DNA of 64,000 nucleotides from a virus. The position numbers and the translations under genes are program-made. The DNA lies in the IMG/VR virus record IMGVR_UViG_3300047557_001530, positions 32,001 through 96,000 of that record. One strand, 5' to 3'. Below the pieces are notes generated by a model, which saw nothing but the letters and a program-made list of their open reading frames with translations, did no database searches and was not told the origin of the DNA. Below are positions 22,212-58,140 of this stretch, piece by piece; positions within the stretch are counted from its first letter, which is position 1; each line of letters starts with the position of its first letter.

Positions 22212-23023
22212 TGTTAGGTAATCATTTTTATAACGAGGCGATACGAAAAACGGTAGTCGGCTTCGGAACACTATTCAATAATATCGAAGTTCAAAGGAAA
22301 GATCCTCAGACTAAAGAAGTCATTGAGGTTCAGAAAGTTCCTCTTGCTTACGGACCAAAGGATAAGTTTATTGCTCGTATCGAGCAAAACATAGATCCTA
22401 CTCCAGGAGCACCATATGAGAATATGAGAATTCCTCGTATGTATTTTGAAATGAAAGGAATTAATTATGATGGATCAAGAAAAGTAAGTCCTATTCAAAA
22501 ATACAAAAATGTTATTGCAGACAATGGGAATGAAATAAGGGTGCAGTATGTTCCTGTTCCTTACAATGTTGATTTTGAACTTGGCGTTCTTGTCAAATCA
22601 CAAGATGATGGGCTGCAGATTGTTGAGCAGATTCTACCATACTTTCAACCAAATTTCAACATCACTGTCAATTTTATTCCAGAAATGGATGAAAAGAAAG
22701 ATGTTGCTATCGTAATGAATAGTGTTGATCTTGATGATGCTTGGGACGGTGAGTATGCCAGCCGAAGATCTATTATTTGGACTTTTCAGTTTACTGCTAA
22801 GTCATACATTTATGGTCCCTTTAATCAGGCTGACATCATTCGTAAAGCTATTATTTACGAAACAGTTGGTGATCTTGATCAAGGAAAGCGTAATGCTAGA
22901 TTTACATATTCTCCGCAGGCATTACAAGATTATAATGAAGATGGTGTAATTAATCAAGCGGATGATCCGTTTGTAACTGCAGACGATGATTTTGGATTTA
23001 ACGGAACTATTGATCTACTATGA
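22211..23023 (+). CDS. gp15: Tail sheath stabiliser/terminator
   Basis: HFYNEAIRKTVVGFGTLFNNI, VPLAYGPK, QIVEQILPYFQP. Confidence 0.95.
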   Translation: MLGNHFYNEAIRKTVVGFGTLFNNIEVQRKDPQTKEVIEVQKVPLAYGPKDKFIARIEQNIDPTPGAPYENMRIPRMYFEMKGINYDGSRKVSPIQKYKNVIADNGNEIRVQYVPVPYNVDFELGVLVKSQDDGLQIVEQILPYFQPNFNITVNFIPEMDEKKDVAIVMNSVDLDDAWDGEYASRRSIIWTFQFTAKSYIYGPFNQADIIRKAIIYETVGDLDQGKRNARFTYSPQALQDYNEDGVINQADDPFVTADDDFGFNGTIDLL

Positions 23024-23442
23024 ACGAGTTTGAAAAAAATATGGAACAAATATTTGATATTGAAGTTACAGCAGAAGAAACCGAGATTATTGAAGAGAAG
23101 CCAAAACCCCCAGCAAAGAAAGAAGACCCAGAAAAAGATTACGAATATACCAGGGGTCAACTATACGACCTCATAGAGAAGGGCCAGGAGGCCGTACAAG
23201 GGGCCTTAGAGGTTGCTCAGGAGTCAGGGCACCCTAGAGCGTTTGAAGTCGCTGTGAACGCTATGAAGCAGGTCTCAGACATGACTGATAAATTAATTGA
23301 TCTTCAAAAGAAAATGAAGGATCTTGATGCCCCAGTTAAAGGCAAAGGACCTACTACTGTTAATAATACAATGTTTGTTGGCAGCACTGCTGATCTTCAA
23401 AAAATGATTAAAGAAATGGGCAAGAATATGGCGGGAGAATAA
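23020..23442 (+). CDS. gp16: Terminase small subunit
   Basis: DYEYTRGQLYDLIEKG, HPRAFEV, NNTMFVGSTADLQK. Confidence 0.95.
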   Translation: MNEFEKNMEQIFDIEVTAEETEIIEEKPKPPAKKEDPEKDYEYTRGQLYDLIEKGQEAVQGALEVAQESGHPRAFEVAVNAMKQVSDMTDKLIDLQKKMKDLDAPVKGKGPTTVNNTMFVGSTADLQKMIKEMGKNMAGE

Positions 23443-23465: not shown

Positions 23466-23744
23466 ATGAGATTCAAAATTCTCGATGAAGCGGTAACGCT
23501 AACAACAACCCCAAATGATATTGGTAAAGCAACCGACGTTTACCTATACAATAGTCATTCAGAACTATCTGGTGAAGCTTCTACCAGAACTATTTCTTTA
23601 TATGAAGCTGATGGCACAACTGTTGTAGGAAGTTTTGCTTTGACGGTTGGTATTCCTGTCATCATTAATAAAGATGCTGAGCAAAAACTCAAAGTAGATG
23701 GCGATAACAACGTCACTGCTACAAAAGTCGCTTACCTAGGATAA
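23466..23744 (+). CDS. Hypothetical protein, probably virion
   Basis: 92-aa beta-rich ORF after late promoter ATAAATA (about 23438), translationally coupled to the next gene. Confidence 0.65.
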   Translation: MRFKILDEAVTLTTTPNDIGKATDVYLYNSHSELSGEASTRTISLYEADGTTVVGSFALTVGIPVIINKDAEQKLKVDGDNNVTATKVAYLG

Positions 23745-25135
23745 TGGCACAGTATAGCAAACACTACGAAGATTTCCTACCACAGGAGAAAACAAACTTT
23801 GAGGTAGTCATGATTGCCGATAACTTCGGTAATCTCACTGCTGGTACAGGTGCCACTGCGGTTGATGCTTTCGGTCGTTTGAGAGTTGCTGAAACATTCA
23901 CTCTCGGTGATTACAAACATCTCTATGCTATTGATCCAAATTTTATTGATTTAAAAGAAAACGGTGGTGATATTCAATTTGCTGCCAATAAAGCAGCTGC
24001 CACGATGACTACAACATCTAATGTTGCTTCTCGTGCTTTACATCAAACAAAGTTCTATCACCATTACCAGCCAGGTAAATCTCAAGTTATCTTTAGTTCA
24101 GTATGCTTTGGTTACGCCCAGCAGAATGTAACCAAAAGAACTGGATACTTTGATGACAGAGATGGCATTTACTTTGAGCAAGTTGGAAATGGAACTTCTA
24201 ACGGTACAACCAATGGCACACTCAATTTTGTAGTTCGTTCATATGTTAGTGGTAGTGCTAGTGAAACAACGGTAGGAAACTACAAGAGAAGAGTTCCTCA
24301 ATCAGAATGGAATATCGATCCTTGTGATGGAACTGGTCCTTCCAAATTTAACATCGATACTTCAAAAACACAACTAGTTTATATTGACTTTCAATGGCTT
24401 GGAGTTGGTAGAATTCGATGTGGATTTGTACACAACGGACAAATTATTTTAGCACATGAATACTACTGCTCTAACGAACTAGCAGAAGTTTATATGTCAA
24501 ATCCTAATCTCCCAGTAAGATGCGAGATTAAAAATACTGGCACAACTACTGGTGGATCTATGAATCAGATTTGCTCTACGGTAATGTCGGAAGGTGGATA
24601 TGTTGAGAGTGGTATTGACTGGGCAGTTACTTCTCCAGCAACTAGAACGAGTATTGCTCCTGGAGGAACTAGATTTCCTTTGCTGGCAATCCGTCTCAAA
24701 AACGATTTCAAAGGTTATCCAAATAGAATTAGTGTAAGACCAAATACGATTGGAATTTTTGCTCAATCTGGCGATTGCTATTATGAATTAATCAAACTAT
24801 CAAATGCCAGTCAATTAACCACATCTTTAAATGGTGGCACTTTGACTTGGACAGATGCTGATGATGATAGTGGTGTTCAATATTGTGTAAATGCCGAAGC
24901 AATTACTGGAAGTGTTGATGTATTTGCTGCTGGTATTGTAACTGCTGGGGCATCGCCAAACTCACTTACTCCAGTAGCATCTGGTGGTCTAACGACGGCG
25001 AAGAAAAATATTATTGTTCAGAATTTAGATTCAACAAATTCTGAAGTGTTTGTTATTGCTGTAAAAACTATTAGTGCTGCTAGTAATGCTACTGCTAATG
25101 TTGCCGCTACTATTCAATGGAGGGAGATTTACTAA
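23744..25135 (+). CDS. Conserved hypothetical virion structural protein
   Basis: 463 aa; DAFGRLRV, YQPGKSQ, DFQWLGVGRIRCGF pattern; lies in the late operon. Confidence 0.65.
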   Translation: MAQYSKHYEDFLPQEKTNFEVVMIADNFGNLTAGTGATAVDAFGRLRVAETFTLGDYKHLYAIDPNFIDLKENGGDIQFAANKAAATMTTTSNVASRALHQTKFYHHYQPGKSQVIFSSVCFGYAQQNVTKRTGYFDDRDGIYFEQVGNGTSNGTTNGTLNFVVRSYVSGSASETTVGNYKRRVPQSEWNIDPCDGTGPSKFNIDTSKTQLVYIDFQWLGVGRIRCGFVHNGQIILAHEYYCSNELAEVYMSNPNLPVRCEIKNTGTTTGGSMNQICSTVMSEGGYVESGIDWAVTSPATRTSIAPGGTRFPLLAIRLKNDFKGYPNRISVRPNTIGIFAQSGDCYYELIKLSNASQLTTSLNGGTLTWTDADDDSGVQYCVNAEAITGSVDVFAAGIVTAGASPNSLTPVASGGLTTAKKNIIVQNLDSTNSEVFVIAVKTISAASNATANVAATIQWREIY

Positions 25136-25881
25136 TGAAAAAGAAAGTTCCCACCGAAAAAGAAATTGCTCGTAAGCATGGTGTGCCTGTTGAAAAAATT
25201 ATCAAACAGGCAGAAGTTGGTTCGACCGTAGAGCGAGAGCATGTTACTACACATGAAGAAGCATATGGTATTGCCCTTCAACATTTAGATGAATTTCCAG
25301 ACTACTACACTCATTTACTCAAAATGGAAAAAGAATTAAAAGCAAAACACAAAAAGAAAAAATCATACAAAGAAATCAAAGAATCTCTTGGTATGGTAGA
25401 GAACCATATCGATGTTGCTATGGGCAGAGAACTTGATGATGAAGGAGCAATGATTCTCAATCAACTTGATGAAATTGAAATGTGTTGTCAACACTTAAGA
25501 AAAACAATCACAGGAATGAATATGCAAGTTCCTGGCTGGGTACAAGCAAAGGTCACTCTTGCTGCTGATTATATTGATACTGCTGCTTCTTACATGGACA
25601 ACAAGAATGAAGAAACCGAAAAAAAGTCGATAGGCGAGTCTACATGGACTCGCAAAGCAGGACAAAATAAAAATGGTGGTCTAAACGAAAAGGGACGCAA
25701 ATCTTACGAAAGGGAAAATCCTGGCAGTGATTTGAAAGCTCCATCAAAAGAAGTTGGAAATCCTCGTAGAGCATCTTTCTGTGCCAGAATGCGGGGGTTA
25801 AAGAAAAAATTAACTTCAAAGAAAACTGCCAACGATCCAGATAGCAGAATCAATAAATCTCTTCGTGCTTGGAATTGCTAA
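25135..25881 (+). CDS. Three-module, probably capsid-internal protein (DUF5661-like, helical and DUF6321-like modules)
   Basis: ATG at 25135 overlaps the previous stop. Modules VEREH...IALQHLDE.PDYYT; DEGAM...WVQAKVTLAADYI; GGLNEKGRKSY...RRASFCARM...LRAWNC. Confidence 0.65.
   Translation: MKKKVPTEKEIARKHGVPVEKIIKQAEVGSTVEREHVTTHEEAYGIALQHLDEFPDYYTHLLKMEKELKAKHKKKKSYKEIKESLGMVENHIDVAMGRELDDEGAMILNQLDEIEMCCQHLRKTITGMNMQVPGWVQAKVTLAADYIDTAASYMDNKNEETEKKSIGESTWTRKAGQNKNGGLNEKGRKSYERENPGSDLKAPSKEVGNPRRASFCARMRGLKKKLTSKKTANDPDSRINKSLRAWNC
25620..25653 (+). other. Candidate -1 programmed ribosomal frameshift signal
   Basis: In-frame A_AAA_AAG (25620-25626), 7-nt spacer, perfect 7-bp stem gcgagtc/gactcgc. 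Confidence 0.55.
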
Positions 25882-25948: not shown

Positions 25949-26194
25949 GTGAGAATTATGGATACTAAAACCTGTCCCAAGTGTGGGGCACAGTGGATCG
26001 GCGGGCAGCATTTCTGGACTGGTACAAACAAGAAAGGTGATGAAACAGAGTTAGCATCTCTTGTTTGTGATAAGTTCGGGAATGATACATGTATTAATCC
26101 TTGCAAAGGAACTACCGATGGTAAAGGGTGGGAAAATAGATTAAATAATATGGATGCTATTGATAAAGATATACAGAGGACTTTGAATGAGTAG
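25949..26194 (+). CDS. Small Cys-rich hypothetical protein
   Basis: CPKCGA.W...LVC...CINP; overlaps the gp17 start; late promoter CTAAATA at about 25923. True start may be the ATG at 25958. Confidence 0.65.
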   Translation: MRIMDTKTCPKCGAQWIGGQHFWTGTNKKGDETELASLVCDKFGNDTCINPCKGTTDGKGWENRLNNMDAIDKDIQRTLNE

Positions 26195-27833
26195 TGATCA
26201 GATTTATTTGGGCAACCCGCTGCTAAAAAAAGCGAACGTTGCCCACAATTGGACAAAGGATGAAATTAAAGAATATATTAAGTGTAAGGAAGATCCTGTA
26301 TACTTTGCGGTAAACTACGTCAAAATTGTTTCGGTTGACGAAGGTTTGATTCCTTTCAGAATGTATGACTTCCAGAAAGAATTAGTTAATCGATTCCACA
26401 ACAATAGATTTAATATTGCCAAGCTTCCAAGACAGACAGGGAAATCAACCGTTGTGGTTTCCTATCTGCTTCACTATGCTTTGTTCAATGATAGTTCTAA
26501 TATTGGTATTCTAGCAAACAAAGCGTCTACTGCTAGAGACCTATTGGGAAGATTGCAGACAGCATACGAGAATCTTCCTAAGTGGTTGCAACAGGGTGTT
26601 ATCTCCTGGAACAAAGGTTCTATGGAACTAGAGAATGGTTCCAAGATCATGGCGGCGTCAACCTCAGCATCTGCCGTCCGAGGAATGTCATTCAACATTA
26701 TCTTCTTGGACGAATTTGCGTTCGTTCCAAATCACATTGCTGACGACTTCTTCTCGTCTGTATATCCTACCATTTCATCTGGTAAGAGCACGAAGGTTAT
26801 CATCATCTCTACCCCGTATGGTATGAACCACTTCTACAAGTTGTGGGTAGATGCTCAAAACAAACGAAACAATTATATTTGGACAGAGGTTCACTGGTCT
26901 GAAGTTCCTGGTCGTGATGCTAAGTGGAAAGAAGAAACAATCAAGAACACTTCAGAACGTCAATTCACTCAGGAATTTGAGTGCGAATTCTTAGGATCGG
27001 TTGACACTCTTATTTCTGCATCTAAACTTAGATCACTTGTTTTTGATACTCCAATCAGTTCAAACAAAGGTTTAGATGTTTATGAAAAACCAAACGAAAA
27101 ATCAGAATACATTATTACTGCCGACGTTAGTAGAGGTATAGGCGGTGATTATTCAGCGTTTATTGTTTTCGATATCACAACTGTTCCTTATAAGATCGTA
27201 GCAAAATATAGGAACAACGAGATCAAACCGATGCTTTTCCCCAACGTTATTAATGACGTTGCTAGGGCATACAATAATGCTTATGTATTGTGTGAAGTGA
27301 ACGACGTTGGTGATCAGGTAGCATCTATTCTTAACTACGATCTAGAGTATCCGAACGTATTGATGTGTTCTATGCGAGGTAGGGCAGGTCAAATTGTTGG
27401 ACAAGGATTCTCTGGAAATAAAACTCAGCTTGGATTGAAGATGTCCATTACTGTGAAGAAGGTTGGATGTGCCAATTTAAAACAGATGATCGAGGACGAC
27501 AAGCTGTTGTTTAGAGATTACGAAATCATCTCTGAGCTTACCACATTTATTCAGAAAAAGCAATCTTTTGAGGCTGATGATGGATTTCATGATGACCTTG
27601 TAATGTGTCTCGTTATCTTTGCCTGGCTTGCTGTTCAGGATTACTTTAAGGAAATGACGGACAATGATGTTCGTAAAAGAATCTACGAAGAGCAGAAAAA
27701 TCAAATCGAACAAGACATGGCTCCATTTGGTTTTATCACAACAGGGTTAGAGGGTGATGAAGGTTTTGTTGAAGATGGAGTTCTTTGGTATGGGGATACA
27801 CAAGAAGACATATCATATATGTGGAACCTTTAA
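26187..27833 (+). CDS. gp17: Terminase large subunit
   Basis: YLGNPLLKKAN, Walker A PRQTGKST, Walker B IFLDEFAF, nuclease ADVSRG...HDDLVM. Confidence 0.97.
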   Translation: MSSDQIYLGNPLLKKANVAHNWTKDEIKEYIKCKEDPVYFAVNYVKIVSVDEGLIPFRMYDFQKELVNRFHNNRFNIAKLPRQTGKSTVVVSYLLHYALFNDSSNIGILANKASTARDLLGRLQTAYENLPKWLQQGVISWNKGSMELENGSKIMAASTSASAVRGMSFNIIFLDEFAFVPNHIADDFFSSVYPTISSGKSTKVIIISTPYGMNHFYKLWVDAQNKRNNYIWTEVHWSEVPGRDAKWKEETIKNTSERQFTQEFECEFLGSVDTLISASKLRSLVFDTPISSNKGLDVYEKPNEKSEYIITADVSRGIGGDYSAFIVFDITTVPYKIVAKYRNNEIKPMLFPNVINDVARAYNNAYVLCEVNDVGDQVASILNYDLEYPNVLMCSMRGRAGQIVGQGFSGNKTQLGLKMSITVKKVGCANLKQMIEDDKLLFRDYEIISELTTFIQKKQSFEADDGFHDDLVMCLVIFAWLAVQDYFKEMTDNDVRKRIYEEQKNQIEQDMAPFGFITTGLEGDEGFVEDGVLWYGDTQEDISYMWNL

Positions 27834-49009: not shown

Positions 49010-49392
49010 AGTATGAGTTAAAAGATTATCTTAACGCAATTAATCAATCAAAAAAGAAACTTCTTGATGATGATCAAGAAGCGGTAAAAGGCTATCCATC
49101 TTTTATCATTAATAAATGCTTGTCTTCATTTACAGATACTGTTCTGTATGCTAACGAGATGAACAAGAATGCTCATCTAGACAAGAAACTTCAGTTTGAC
49201 TTCTATATAAATAGTTTGAAACCAAGGAAACGTTTTAGTCCCTGGGTTAAAAAACAAACACTTGAGAATCTTGAATTGGTGAAAGAGTATTATGGCTATA
49301 GTCATAACAAAGCTTTAGAAGCATTACAAATTCTCACAACTGATCAACTTGAAGCTATCAAAAAAGCATTGTATAAGGGTGGAACAAAATGA
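49006..49392 (+). CDS. gp62: Clamp loader small subunit
   Basis: YPSFIINKCLS, ANEMN, KPRKRFSPW, VKEYYGYS. Confidence 0.93.
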   Translation: MKYELKDYLNAINQSKKKLLDDDQEAVKGYPSFIINKCLSSFTDTVLYANEMNKNAHLDKKLQFDFYINSLKPRKRFSPWVKKQTLENLELVKEYYGYSHNKALEALQILTTDQLEAIKKALYKGGTK

Positions 49393-57069: not shown

Positions 57070-57981
57070 ATGGAACGACAAAGAGCAACGACCCAACTAG
57101 CACATTATGACGATTTTTCTAAAGCATTGATTGAGTCGTCAGTCAGATATCTTGGCGAAGAAGGAATTCCTTCATTGCAAAAGAAAGGTAATGAAGATGA
57201 TTTCTCAAAGAAAGATCCTAAAGCAAAAGCAGCTCCTGCTGACCCAGCAATCAATATTGCTGCTGGCACTGGCACAAAACAATCTCATGGTGCAGAGATT
57301 GAATATACTACAGTTCGTGCCAAGAACGTACAGCGTGAAGAAGTAGAAAAGGAAGACGAGAGTAAAGCTGAAGAAGAAAAAGAAAAGAAGATGAGCAAGA
57401 CTGCCAAGGAAAAGCATGAGAAGGCAGAAGACAAGAAAGAAAAGGAAATGAAGGAAACCTACGAGTTAGAACTGGATGGCAATACTTACATCTTTGAGAA
57501 AAAGATGGATGGTAAGGATGACAATGGTTTCACGTCATGTTGGAAAGGATACAAGAAAGTTGGCACCAAAATGAAGGGTGGCAAAGAAGTTAATAATTGT
57601 GTTAAAGCAGGTTATGAACCAATTGGTGAATTAGTGCTTGATGAAAAAGCCCCCGCTGGGGCTAAGTTTGAAAGAATGGTTAAACATATTAAGAAGAGCT
57701 ATTCTAAAGATGGTTTAACTGATAAAGAAAAGGGTATTGCTTACGCTACTGCATGGAAGCAAAAGAATAAAGAACAGAAAGAAGAGTTTGATTTAACTGA
57801 AAAGAAACTTGATGCAGTAGGAAAGGAAGATAAAGATATTGATAATGATGGTGATCATGATAAGTCAGATAAGTATCTTTTAAATCGTCGTAAAACAGTA
57901 GGTAAAATTCTTGCTGCCAAGAAAAAAGTTAATGAAATGATTGCTTGGGAACAGGAGATTATCGCTGAAAAAAAGAACTGA
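57070..57981 (+). CDS. Charged modular protein, probably capsid-internal
   Basis: 303 aa, K/E-rich. Modules CWKGY...NNCVK, APAGAKFERMVKHIK...AYATAWK and DIDNDGDHDKSD separated by (L/I)xE sites. Confidence 0.65.
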   Translation: MERQRATTQLAHYDDFSKALIESSVRYLGEEGIPSLQKKGNEDDFSKKDPKAKAAPADPAINIAAGTGTKQSHGAEIEYTTVRAKNVQREEVEKEDESKAEEEKEKKMSKTAKEKHEKAEDKKEKEMKETYELELDGNTYIFEKKMDGKDDNGFTSCWKGYKKVGTKMKGGKEVNNCVKAGYEPIGELVLDEKAPAGAKFERMVKHIKKSYSKDGLTDKEKGIAYATAWKQKNKEQKEEFDLTEKKLDAVGKEDKDIDNDGDHDKSDKYLLNRRKTVGKILAAKKKVNEMIAWEQEIIAEKKN

Positions 57982-58007
57982 AGGCATCCACTGTAGAAGT
58001 GATGCCT
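57969..58007 (+). other. Candidate -1 programmed ribosomal frameshift signal
   Basis: In-frame A_AAA_AAG (57969-57975), 6-nt spacer, stem aggcat-c-cact/agtg-atgcct; the -1 frame is open for 51 codons to TAG 58128-58130. Confidence 0.65.
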
Positions 58008-58140
58008 GAAATTCCAAATAGTCCTGAAGACGGAGAAAGCTCTAAGAAGAATAAAAAGTACATCGGTAGAGCAGTAAACACACAGAAAAAAGATAAGCTA
58101 AATATTACGGGGTCCCCTCGATCAATTTAGGAGCAAAATT

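Follow-up and report, generated by a model that had tools for sequence, protein, structure and literature searches.

A gene located in the interval between the small and large terminase genes of a T4-like cyanomyovirus carries, at the boundary between its second and third modules, what is probably a functional signal, of the dnaX kind, for programmed -1 ribosomal frameshifting. While AAA occupies the P site and AAG the A site, a stem-loop 7 nt downstream would resist unwinding, and the two lysyl-tRNAs would slip in tandem and re-pair one base back, on A_AAA_AAA. Shifted ribosomes would then read 14 more codons, to the stop at 25668-25670, and yield a 178-aa protein composed of DUF5661 and a helical module, without DUF6321; unshifted ribosomes would yield the 248-aa protein that includes DUF6321. 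One gene would in this way supply the DUF6321-less and the DUF6321-bearing forms in a fixed ratio, and a dnaX-type signal would control the attachment of a widespread cyanophage C-terminal module to its carrier protein. We infer that shifting does take place in this phage with substantial efficiency and that the short form serves a purpose. The first-pass annotation had proposed a dnaX-like site that sets the ratio of proteins with and without the last module; the conservation of the signal and three lineages with reversed roles speak for this proposal, which is qualified by the confinement of the signal to a single linker variant.

The window, that is, the whole stretch of 64,000 nucleotides that was analysed, belongs to a genome of 127.7 kb with 37% GC and includes genes for neck proteins, gp15, the small terminase, a virion structural protein, the large terminase and the tail sheath. 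The gene under study (Table 1) is placed in a variable island that spans the small terminase to large terminase interval. In S-CAM1 this island position is taken by unrelated genes, and among isolated phages no record was found with an orthologue of modules 1-2 above 46% identity. The likely start of the gene is the ATG at 25135 (MKKKVPTE), which is kept among homologues, and the stop is the TAA at 25879-25881; the longest ORF starts at 25117 (254 aa) and overlaps the upstream gene. The product is laid out as DUF5661, a helical module and a basic C-terminal DUF6321. Pfam scores amount to 49.1 bits for DUF5661 (curated cut-off 27) and 78.1 bits for DUF6321 (curated cut-off 28.5). In an AlphaFold2 model of the 248-aa protein, built on 42 homologues, each module is confident: module 1 is helical (pLDDT 79-90), and module 2 is made of helices 102-124 and 134-158 (pLDDT about 90) and contains a conserved PGWVQxKVTLAxDY motif. 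The shift codons correspond to residues 162-164 and fall inside the disordered linker, whose sequence varies by orthologue type. The placement of the site at a module boundary, proposed earlier from the letters, is thus borne out by the flanking Pfam domains and by the modelled linker.

Table 1. Coordinates in the window of the three-module gene, its neighbours, its modules and the elements of the putative frameshift signal.
Feature	Position	Strand	Basis or remark
Small terminase	23020-23442		
Virion structural protein	23744-25135		
Three-module protein gene, 248 aa	25135..25881	+	ORF list, Pfam, >4000 homologues
Module 1, DUF5661 (PF18905)	25159..25335	+	Pfam, residues 15-73 of 254-aa ORF, E 7e-13
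Module 2, two long helices, residues about 91-158	25405..25608	+	AlphaFold2 model
Disordered linker with putative recoding signal, residues 159-172	25609..25650	+	Sole stretch with pLDDT <50
Slippery heptamer A_AAA_AAG	25620-25626	+	X_XXY_YYZ register, codons GAA AAA AAG 25618-25626
Spacer TCGATAG, 7 nt	25627..25633	+	Read from sequence
Stem-loop GCGAGTC(U)/(G)GACTCGC	25634..25653	+	Fold -13.1 kcal/mol, z -4.72
Module 3, DUF6321 (PF19846), basic, WTRK to RAWNC	25645..25878	+	Pfam, residues 183-252 of 254-aa ORF, E 8e-22
-1 frame stop TAA	25668-25670	+	Ends predicted 178-aa shifted product
Large terminase	26187-27833		Identity of 85% with that of Synechococcus phage S-CAM1

From the perspective of function, a Foldseek search of the PDB with the gene's protein returned nothing (best E 3.4), and a search of viral models returned only other DUF6321 proteins, one of them named 'virion protein'. 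PHROGs gave families of 'unknown function' only, and some DUF6321 proteins carry structural or virion protein labels in phage records. The earlier designation of the gene as late and of its modules as 'capsid-internal' found no support.

The components of the signal first noticed on reading the DNA, namely GAA AAA AAG in frame, the 7-nt spacer and the stem gcgagtc/gactcgc, were all found where they had been described, and the reading of 14 codons in the -1 frame up to the TAA was confirmed on the sequence. The arms of the stem, GCGAGTC (25634-25640) and GACTCGC (25647-25653), form seven Watson-Crick pairs, extended by an eighth, U.G pair (25641/25646), around a loop of 4-6 nt. None of 200 shuffled sequences is equally stable, and 1.7% of the 40-nt windows of the genome match this stability. 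The -1 frame reads KK and then VDRRVYMDSQSRTK, the predicted shifted product comprising 164 shared residues followed by VDRRVYMDSQSRTK; DUF6321 is encoded in the unshifted product only. With respect to a Shine-Dalgarno-like stimulator, no GGAGG-like run is found 8-14 nt upstream of the heptamer, and an Rfam scan of positions 25500-25760 gave no family better than E = 1.4. An intrinsic terminator was also considered for the stem and rejected, as the stem is followed by AAAGCAGGAC, without a U-run, and lies inside an ORF.

On the host side, the partial psbA of the phage is closest (98%) to those of Synechococcus RCC307 and of freshwater Cyanobium or Synechococcus genomes. In RCC307, used as a stand-in for the host, the 41 tRNA hits include one tRNA-Lys(UUU) and no tRNA-Lys(CUU), and none of the five tRNAs of the phage is for Lys. 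Where one tRNA-Lys reads both AAA and AAG, an AAG in the A site becomes prone to shifting (PMC5009743), and this host-side result is only supportive.

The pattern of codon conservation among in-frame relatives indicates that selection apparently acts on the RNA signal beyond what the protein requires. The set used consists of 14 distinct DNA versions with the linker xKKSxGESxW, collected with search patterns that left synonymous positions free, and their pairwise nucleotide identity ranges from 67 to 94% (median 75%). The heptamer is invariant in all of them. When conserved residues with degenerate codons are considered, five of the six codons in the signal are invariant, versus 6 of 76 elsewhere (Fisher p = 9.5e-5, or p = 3e-4 in a version with 12 sequences), although this test overstates independence, given the relatedness of the sequences and the recombination at the junction. 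The five invariant codons (AAA, AAG, GAG, ACT and CGC) belong to the heptamer and the stem, and the only codon change within the signal, GGC to GGT, is seen in L085 and leaves the bases paired, as G.U in place of G-C. Third positions in the spacer and the loop vary freely and take three to four states among the relatives. In another context Glu (GAA) is replaced by Ala (GCA) just ahead of the heptamer, and the final A of this codon is kept. The -1 frame of the relatives ends 3-14 codons past the shift. Two sequences serve as controls: in L095 the GESAWTRK peptide occurs in an unrelated gene that lacks the heptamer, and no stem is present, and in L011, which has the heptamer, a Gly-to-Lys replacement broke the 5' arm and all three synonymous positions of the stem differ. 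A hairpin unconserved at synonymous positions, named earlier as the observation that would count against the site, was not seen; heptamer and stem are kept in the relatives that share the linker.

What appears to be the strongest evidence for real shifting is provided by role-reversed relatives, in which DUF6321 is encoded in the -1 frame; these, as all the relatives considered here, are metagenomic contigs. A first lineage (L089, L097/L098 and L319) has GAA AAA AAG TAA TGG ahead of the same stem; the spacer has lost one base and measures 6 nt, and a 0-frame stop comes immediately behind the heptamer. In a second one (L315/L316), with an upstream context ending in …NNAKK, GCA AAA AAG TTG TAG precedes the same stem, and no ATG, GTG or TTG is present in the -1 frame between DUF6321 and the preceding stop, which lies two codons ahead of the heptamer. 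The two lineages therefore represent two different losses of 1 nt from the spacer in two different upstream contexts. The third (L318:581-640 and L320:622-681) presents TCG GGA AAG, that is, G_GGA_AAG in register, with an 11-bp hairpin (-20.7 kcal/mol) after a spacer of 5 nt, and its start-less DUF6321 lies in the -1 frame beyond a junction a few codons further on. In all three, the product of a -1 shift would be colinear with the 0-frame protein of the window gene, and in two of the three the -1-frame DUF6321 lacks a start codon. One lineage has an ATG that overlaps the stop (TAATG), so coupled re-initiation could also make DUF6321 there.

The presence of each reversed arrangement in two or more assemblies with differences elsewhere speaks against an assembly error. 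The -1-frame DUF6321 modules show pN/pS values of 0.05-0.15 at pS 0.16-0.79, also between reversed forms, and this purifying selection indicates that the modules are translated. In a tree of modules 1-2, L097 is nested among in-frame, signal-bearing sequences, and the upstream context nearest to that of L315 is found in the in-frame L187. This nesting suggests that in-frame ancestors already shifted efficiently before the base was lost.

The distribution of the signal within the gene family has to be weighed against this evidence. The signal linker is found in about 8% of the full-length homologue cluster representatives; most orthologues have another linker, with no signal at the junction, and some are devoid of DUF6321, so the signal is not essential to the family. 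The orthologues L031, L032 and L037 end at the boundary, with no DUF6321 downstream. At L317:1093-1104 the sequence TGG ACA AAA TAG places an in-frame stop where others have AAG, and the rest of DUF6321 remains open in the same frame, as would be the case for either a nonsense allele or a read-through candidate. Judging from these four loci, the short form can stand alone.

That the family does well with signal-less linkers and without DUF6321, and that the -1 tail is short and shows no conservation in its own right, could be explained if the signal were used in the reversed relatives and merely left over in the in-frame genes, where any shifting would be an unselected by-product and the truncated protein would have no role. 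This is unlikely, because some ten different in-frame sequences have every position of the signal unchanged, with neighbouring synonymous sites near saturation, and because L011, once its stem is broken, drifts at the remaining positions; the position of reversed forms among in-frame ones also points to efficient shifting prior to the loss of the base. The in-frame relatives, the -1-frame relatives with and without a start codon, those in which the signal has decayed and those that lack the module form a set of natural controls, with which one can directly test what DUF6321 does and how efficiently picocyanobacteria recode. Recoding at this junction would also mean that standard gene calling mis-annotates such phages, in which a short ORF and an 'orphan' DUF6321 ORF would be a single recoded gene.

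The module boundary is also a site of exchange. In a tree of modules 1-2, for which sequences were gathered by tblastn (loci L002-L052), signal-bearing genes, genes with other junctions, genes without DUF6321 and genes with a Cys-rich alternative C-terminus are scattered, which indicates repeated recombination at the boundary. The DNA that encodes DUF6321 (25643-25881) is 72-80% identical to 380 phage records, including those of Prochlorococcus and Pelagibacter phages, and this similarity begins abruptly at about 25643, within the loop of the hairpin. Otherwise unrelated proteins, from 99 to >900 aa long, have DUF6321 as their last module, which therefore behaves as a shuffled cassette. The other gene contexts of DUF6321 (in-frame fusions to proteins of 200-640 aa) contain no split forms and no heptamer with hairpin at the boundary; thus, the signal is specific to this gene family and not a general companion of DUF6321.

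A non-recoding role, in which the element would be a folding pause at a domain boundary, an element of mRNA processing or stability, or a recombination junction for module exchange, would account for a site that sits exactly at the domain boundary where similarity to other phages starts, and for the disagreement between linker type and module 1-2 phylogeny, indicative of recombination. Nonetheless, such a role is improbable: none of its versions needs a heptamer in one codon register, including a third-position A kept across a Glu-to-Ala change, and all of them leave unexplained why a start-less DUF6321 in the -1 frame is under purifying selection behind the same signal. Moreover, the missing U-run excludes a terminator, and Rfam provides no match.

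Slippage could alternatively occur during transcription, with RNA polymerase slipping on the A7 run at 25619-25625 and producing mRNAs with one extra A. The homopolymeric run is present, and in Thermus the dnaX products do arise by transcriptional slippage (PMC5009743). This route is nevertheless very improbable here, given that efficient bacterial slippage has been described on runs of 9 A or T (PMC5009743), that the L187/L315 context has only six A, that the GGGAAAG of L318/L320 includes no long run, and that a conserved stem 5-7 nt downstream is a hallmark of ribosomal shifting.

Regarding the abundance of the motif, AAAAAAG is not enriched in the window (30 observed, 36 expected), and A_AAA_AAG in frame is mildly but not significantly depleted in the genome (8 observed versus 13.2 expected, P = 0.06); the count of the motif alone is therefore without weight. 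The combination of heptamer and structure does exceed chance. In the 127.7-kb genome, four of nine in-frame A_AAA_AAG heptamers have a downstream structure at least as stable as -11 kcal/mol, against a background of 4.2% (binomial estimate about 3e-4), and among out-of-frame heptamers the proportion is 1-2 of 28. That a Lys-Lys heptamer and a hairpin simply coincide in an A-rich, Lys/Glu-rich gene, which the unremarkable frequency of AAAAAAG and an estimate of about 14% (from the 1.7% rate) for one hairpin this stable among nine in-frame copies might allow, is hardly credible in view of the conserved synonymous sites, the change that preserves pairing by wobble, the reuse of the signal in three -1-frame arrangements and the strong structures at four of the nine in-frame heptamers.

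Programmed frameshifting in tailed phages is known mainly from tail assembly chaperones. In phage lambda, the G/GT pair is produced on a G_GGA_AAG heptamer that has no strong stimulator, with an efficiency of about 4%, and its products are tail chaperones encoded next to the tape measure gene. As would be the case for the window gene, this is a phage -1 frameshift that delivers a fixed ratio of two proteins with a common N-terminus, and the lambda layout, with a short 0-frame and a long shifted product, resembles that of the reversed relatives L315 and L318. The window gene, however, has the opposite polarity, with the long form in frame, and is located between terminase genes.

The closest likeness is to E. 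coli dnaX, which encodes tau and gamma and in which A_AAA_AAG is likewise followed, a few nt downstream, by a simple 3' stem-loop. The polarity is also the same, since shifting leads to early termination and to a shorter product without C-terminal domains. The differences are that E. coli dnaX has an upstream Shine-Dalgarno-like stimulator, absent from the window site, that its -1 tail is one codon long instead of 14, and that dnaX encodes a polymerase subunit, whereas the window gene is a phage accessory gene. Role reversal is known for dnaX in other bacteria, where it is tied to efficiencies near 50%; as in the family described here, relatives have a 0-frame stop after the site and obtain the long form by shifting (PMC5009743). 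By its anatomy, the window site seems to work like dnaX, but it is not recognisably homologous to dnaX or to any curated element.

Two further systems share part of this design. In Halothiobacillus neapolitanus, CsoS2A and CsoS2B result from a -1 shift that, as predicted for the window gene, gives a truncated isoform without the C-terminal region, and csoS2 also relies on stimulation by a 3' stem-loop, with no Shine-Dalgarno element on the 5' side (PMC5009743). The protein, the heptamer context and the structure are nevertheless different, and in the window gene the part that would be removed is a discrete, portable Pfam domain. The orfAB genes of the IS3/IS911 family share the A_AAA_AAG heptamer and a downstream structure, and reduced synonymous variability is diagnostic of them as well (PMC4066793). 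They fuse two overlapping ORFs of a mobile element, whereas Pfam and PHROGs found no transposase domains in the window gene. A literature search found no paper on frameshifting in cyanophages or on DUF6321.

Other candidate recoding sites are present in this genome, and two of the three additional in-frame heptamers with structure are situated at ORF ends. About 2.7 kb past the end of the window, an ORF for a C39-like peptidase ends in GTA AAA AAG TAG (L105:870-911, corresponding to G000:C1:116169-116210). Beyond a 4-nt spacer there is a 12-bp hairpin (-18.6 kcal/mol), and the -1 frame contains a lysozyme domain that has no start of its own. The A_AAA_AAG heptamer and a 0-frame stop within two codons are kept at this peptidase/lysozyme junction in 31 of 35 distinct relatives, with hairpins of unrelated sequence, a conservation which indicates that frameshifting on the heptamer is apparently in real use in this phage group. 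At window positions 57969-58130, a Lys/Glu-rich ORF of 312 aa ends in GAA AAA AAG AAC TGA, with a hairpin of -13.4 kcal/mol 6 nt on. A -1 shift would add 51 codons. The -1 frame is closed by a stop just upstream of the heptamer and contains, in the 3' arm of the hairpin, a GTG and an ATG; an independent small ORF would therefore be an alternative. The remaining site (49050-49085), at residue 27 of a 140-aa ORF, has an in-frame A_AAA_AAG with a 9-bp hairpin (-11.0 kcal/mol) after 3 nt, its -1 frame stops after three codons, and it may be due to chance.

The odds are about even that frameshifting is a routine design tool in this lineage of T4-like cyanophages, with an efficient shift at the DUF6321 junction, repeated flips of frame and selection on dosage. 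If so, each genome would contain at least three or four -1 frameshift sites, shifting at the DUF6321 junction would reach tens of percent, and at least two heptamer/hairpin pairs would have been used in flips between the in-frame and the -1 arrangement. DUF6321 would then be a portable module of which the dosage, and not just the presence, is selected.

In the commonest orthologue type (…EGAA WTKKSGK…; L007:3493-3550, L021:3523-3580 and similar sequences), the first codons of DUF6321 are ACA AAA AAG, which places A_AAA_AAG in register in seven of 11 distinct sequences, versus none of 16 DUF6321 genes of other families. Downstream folds of these seven range from -5.9 to -12.4 kcal/mol, versus 0 to -1.5 kcal/mol in versions with A_AAA_AAA. 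This type may have a second, weaker shift site, eight codons downstream of that of the window.

Finally, the gap between the three-module gene and the large terminase is occupied by a Cys-rich ORF of 81 aa (MDTKTCPKCGAQW…, phrog_484) at 25949-26194, which is kept in place in all the relatives examined.
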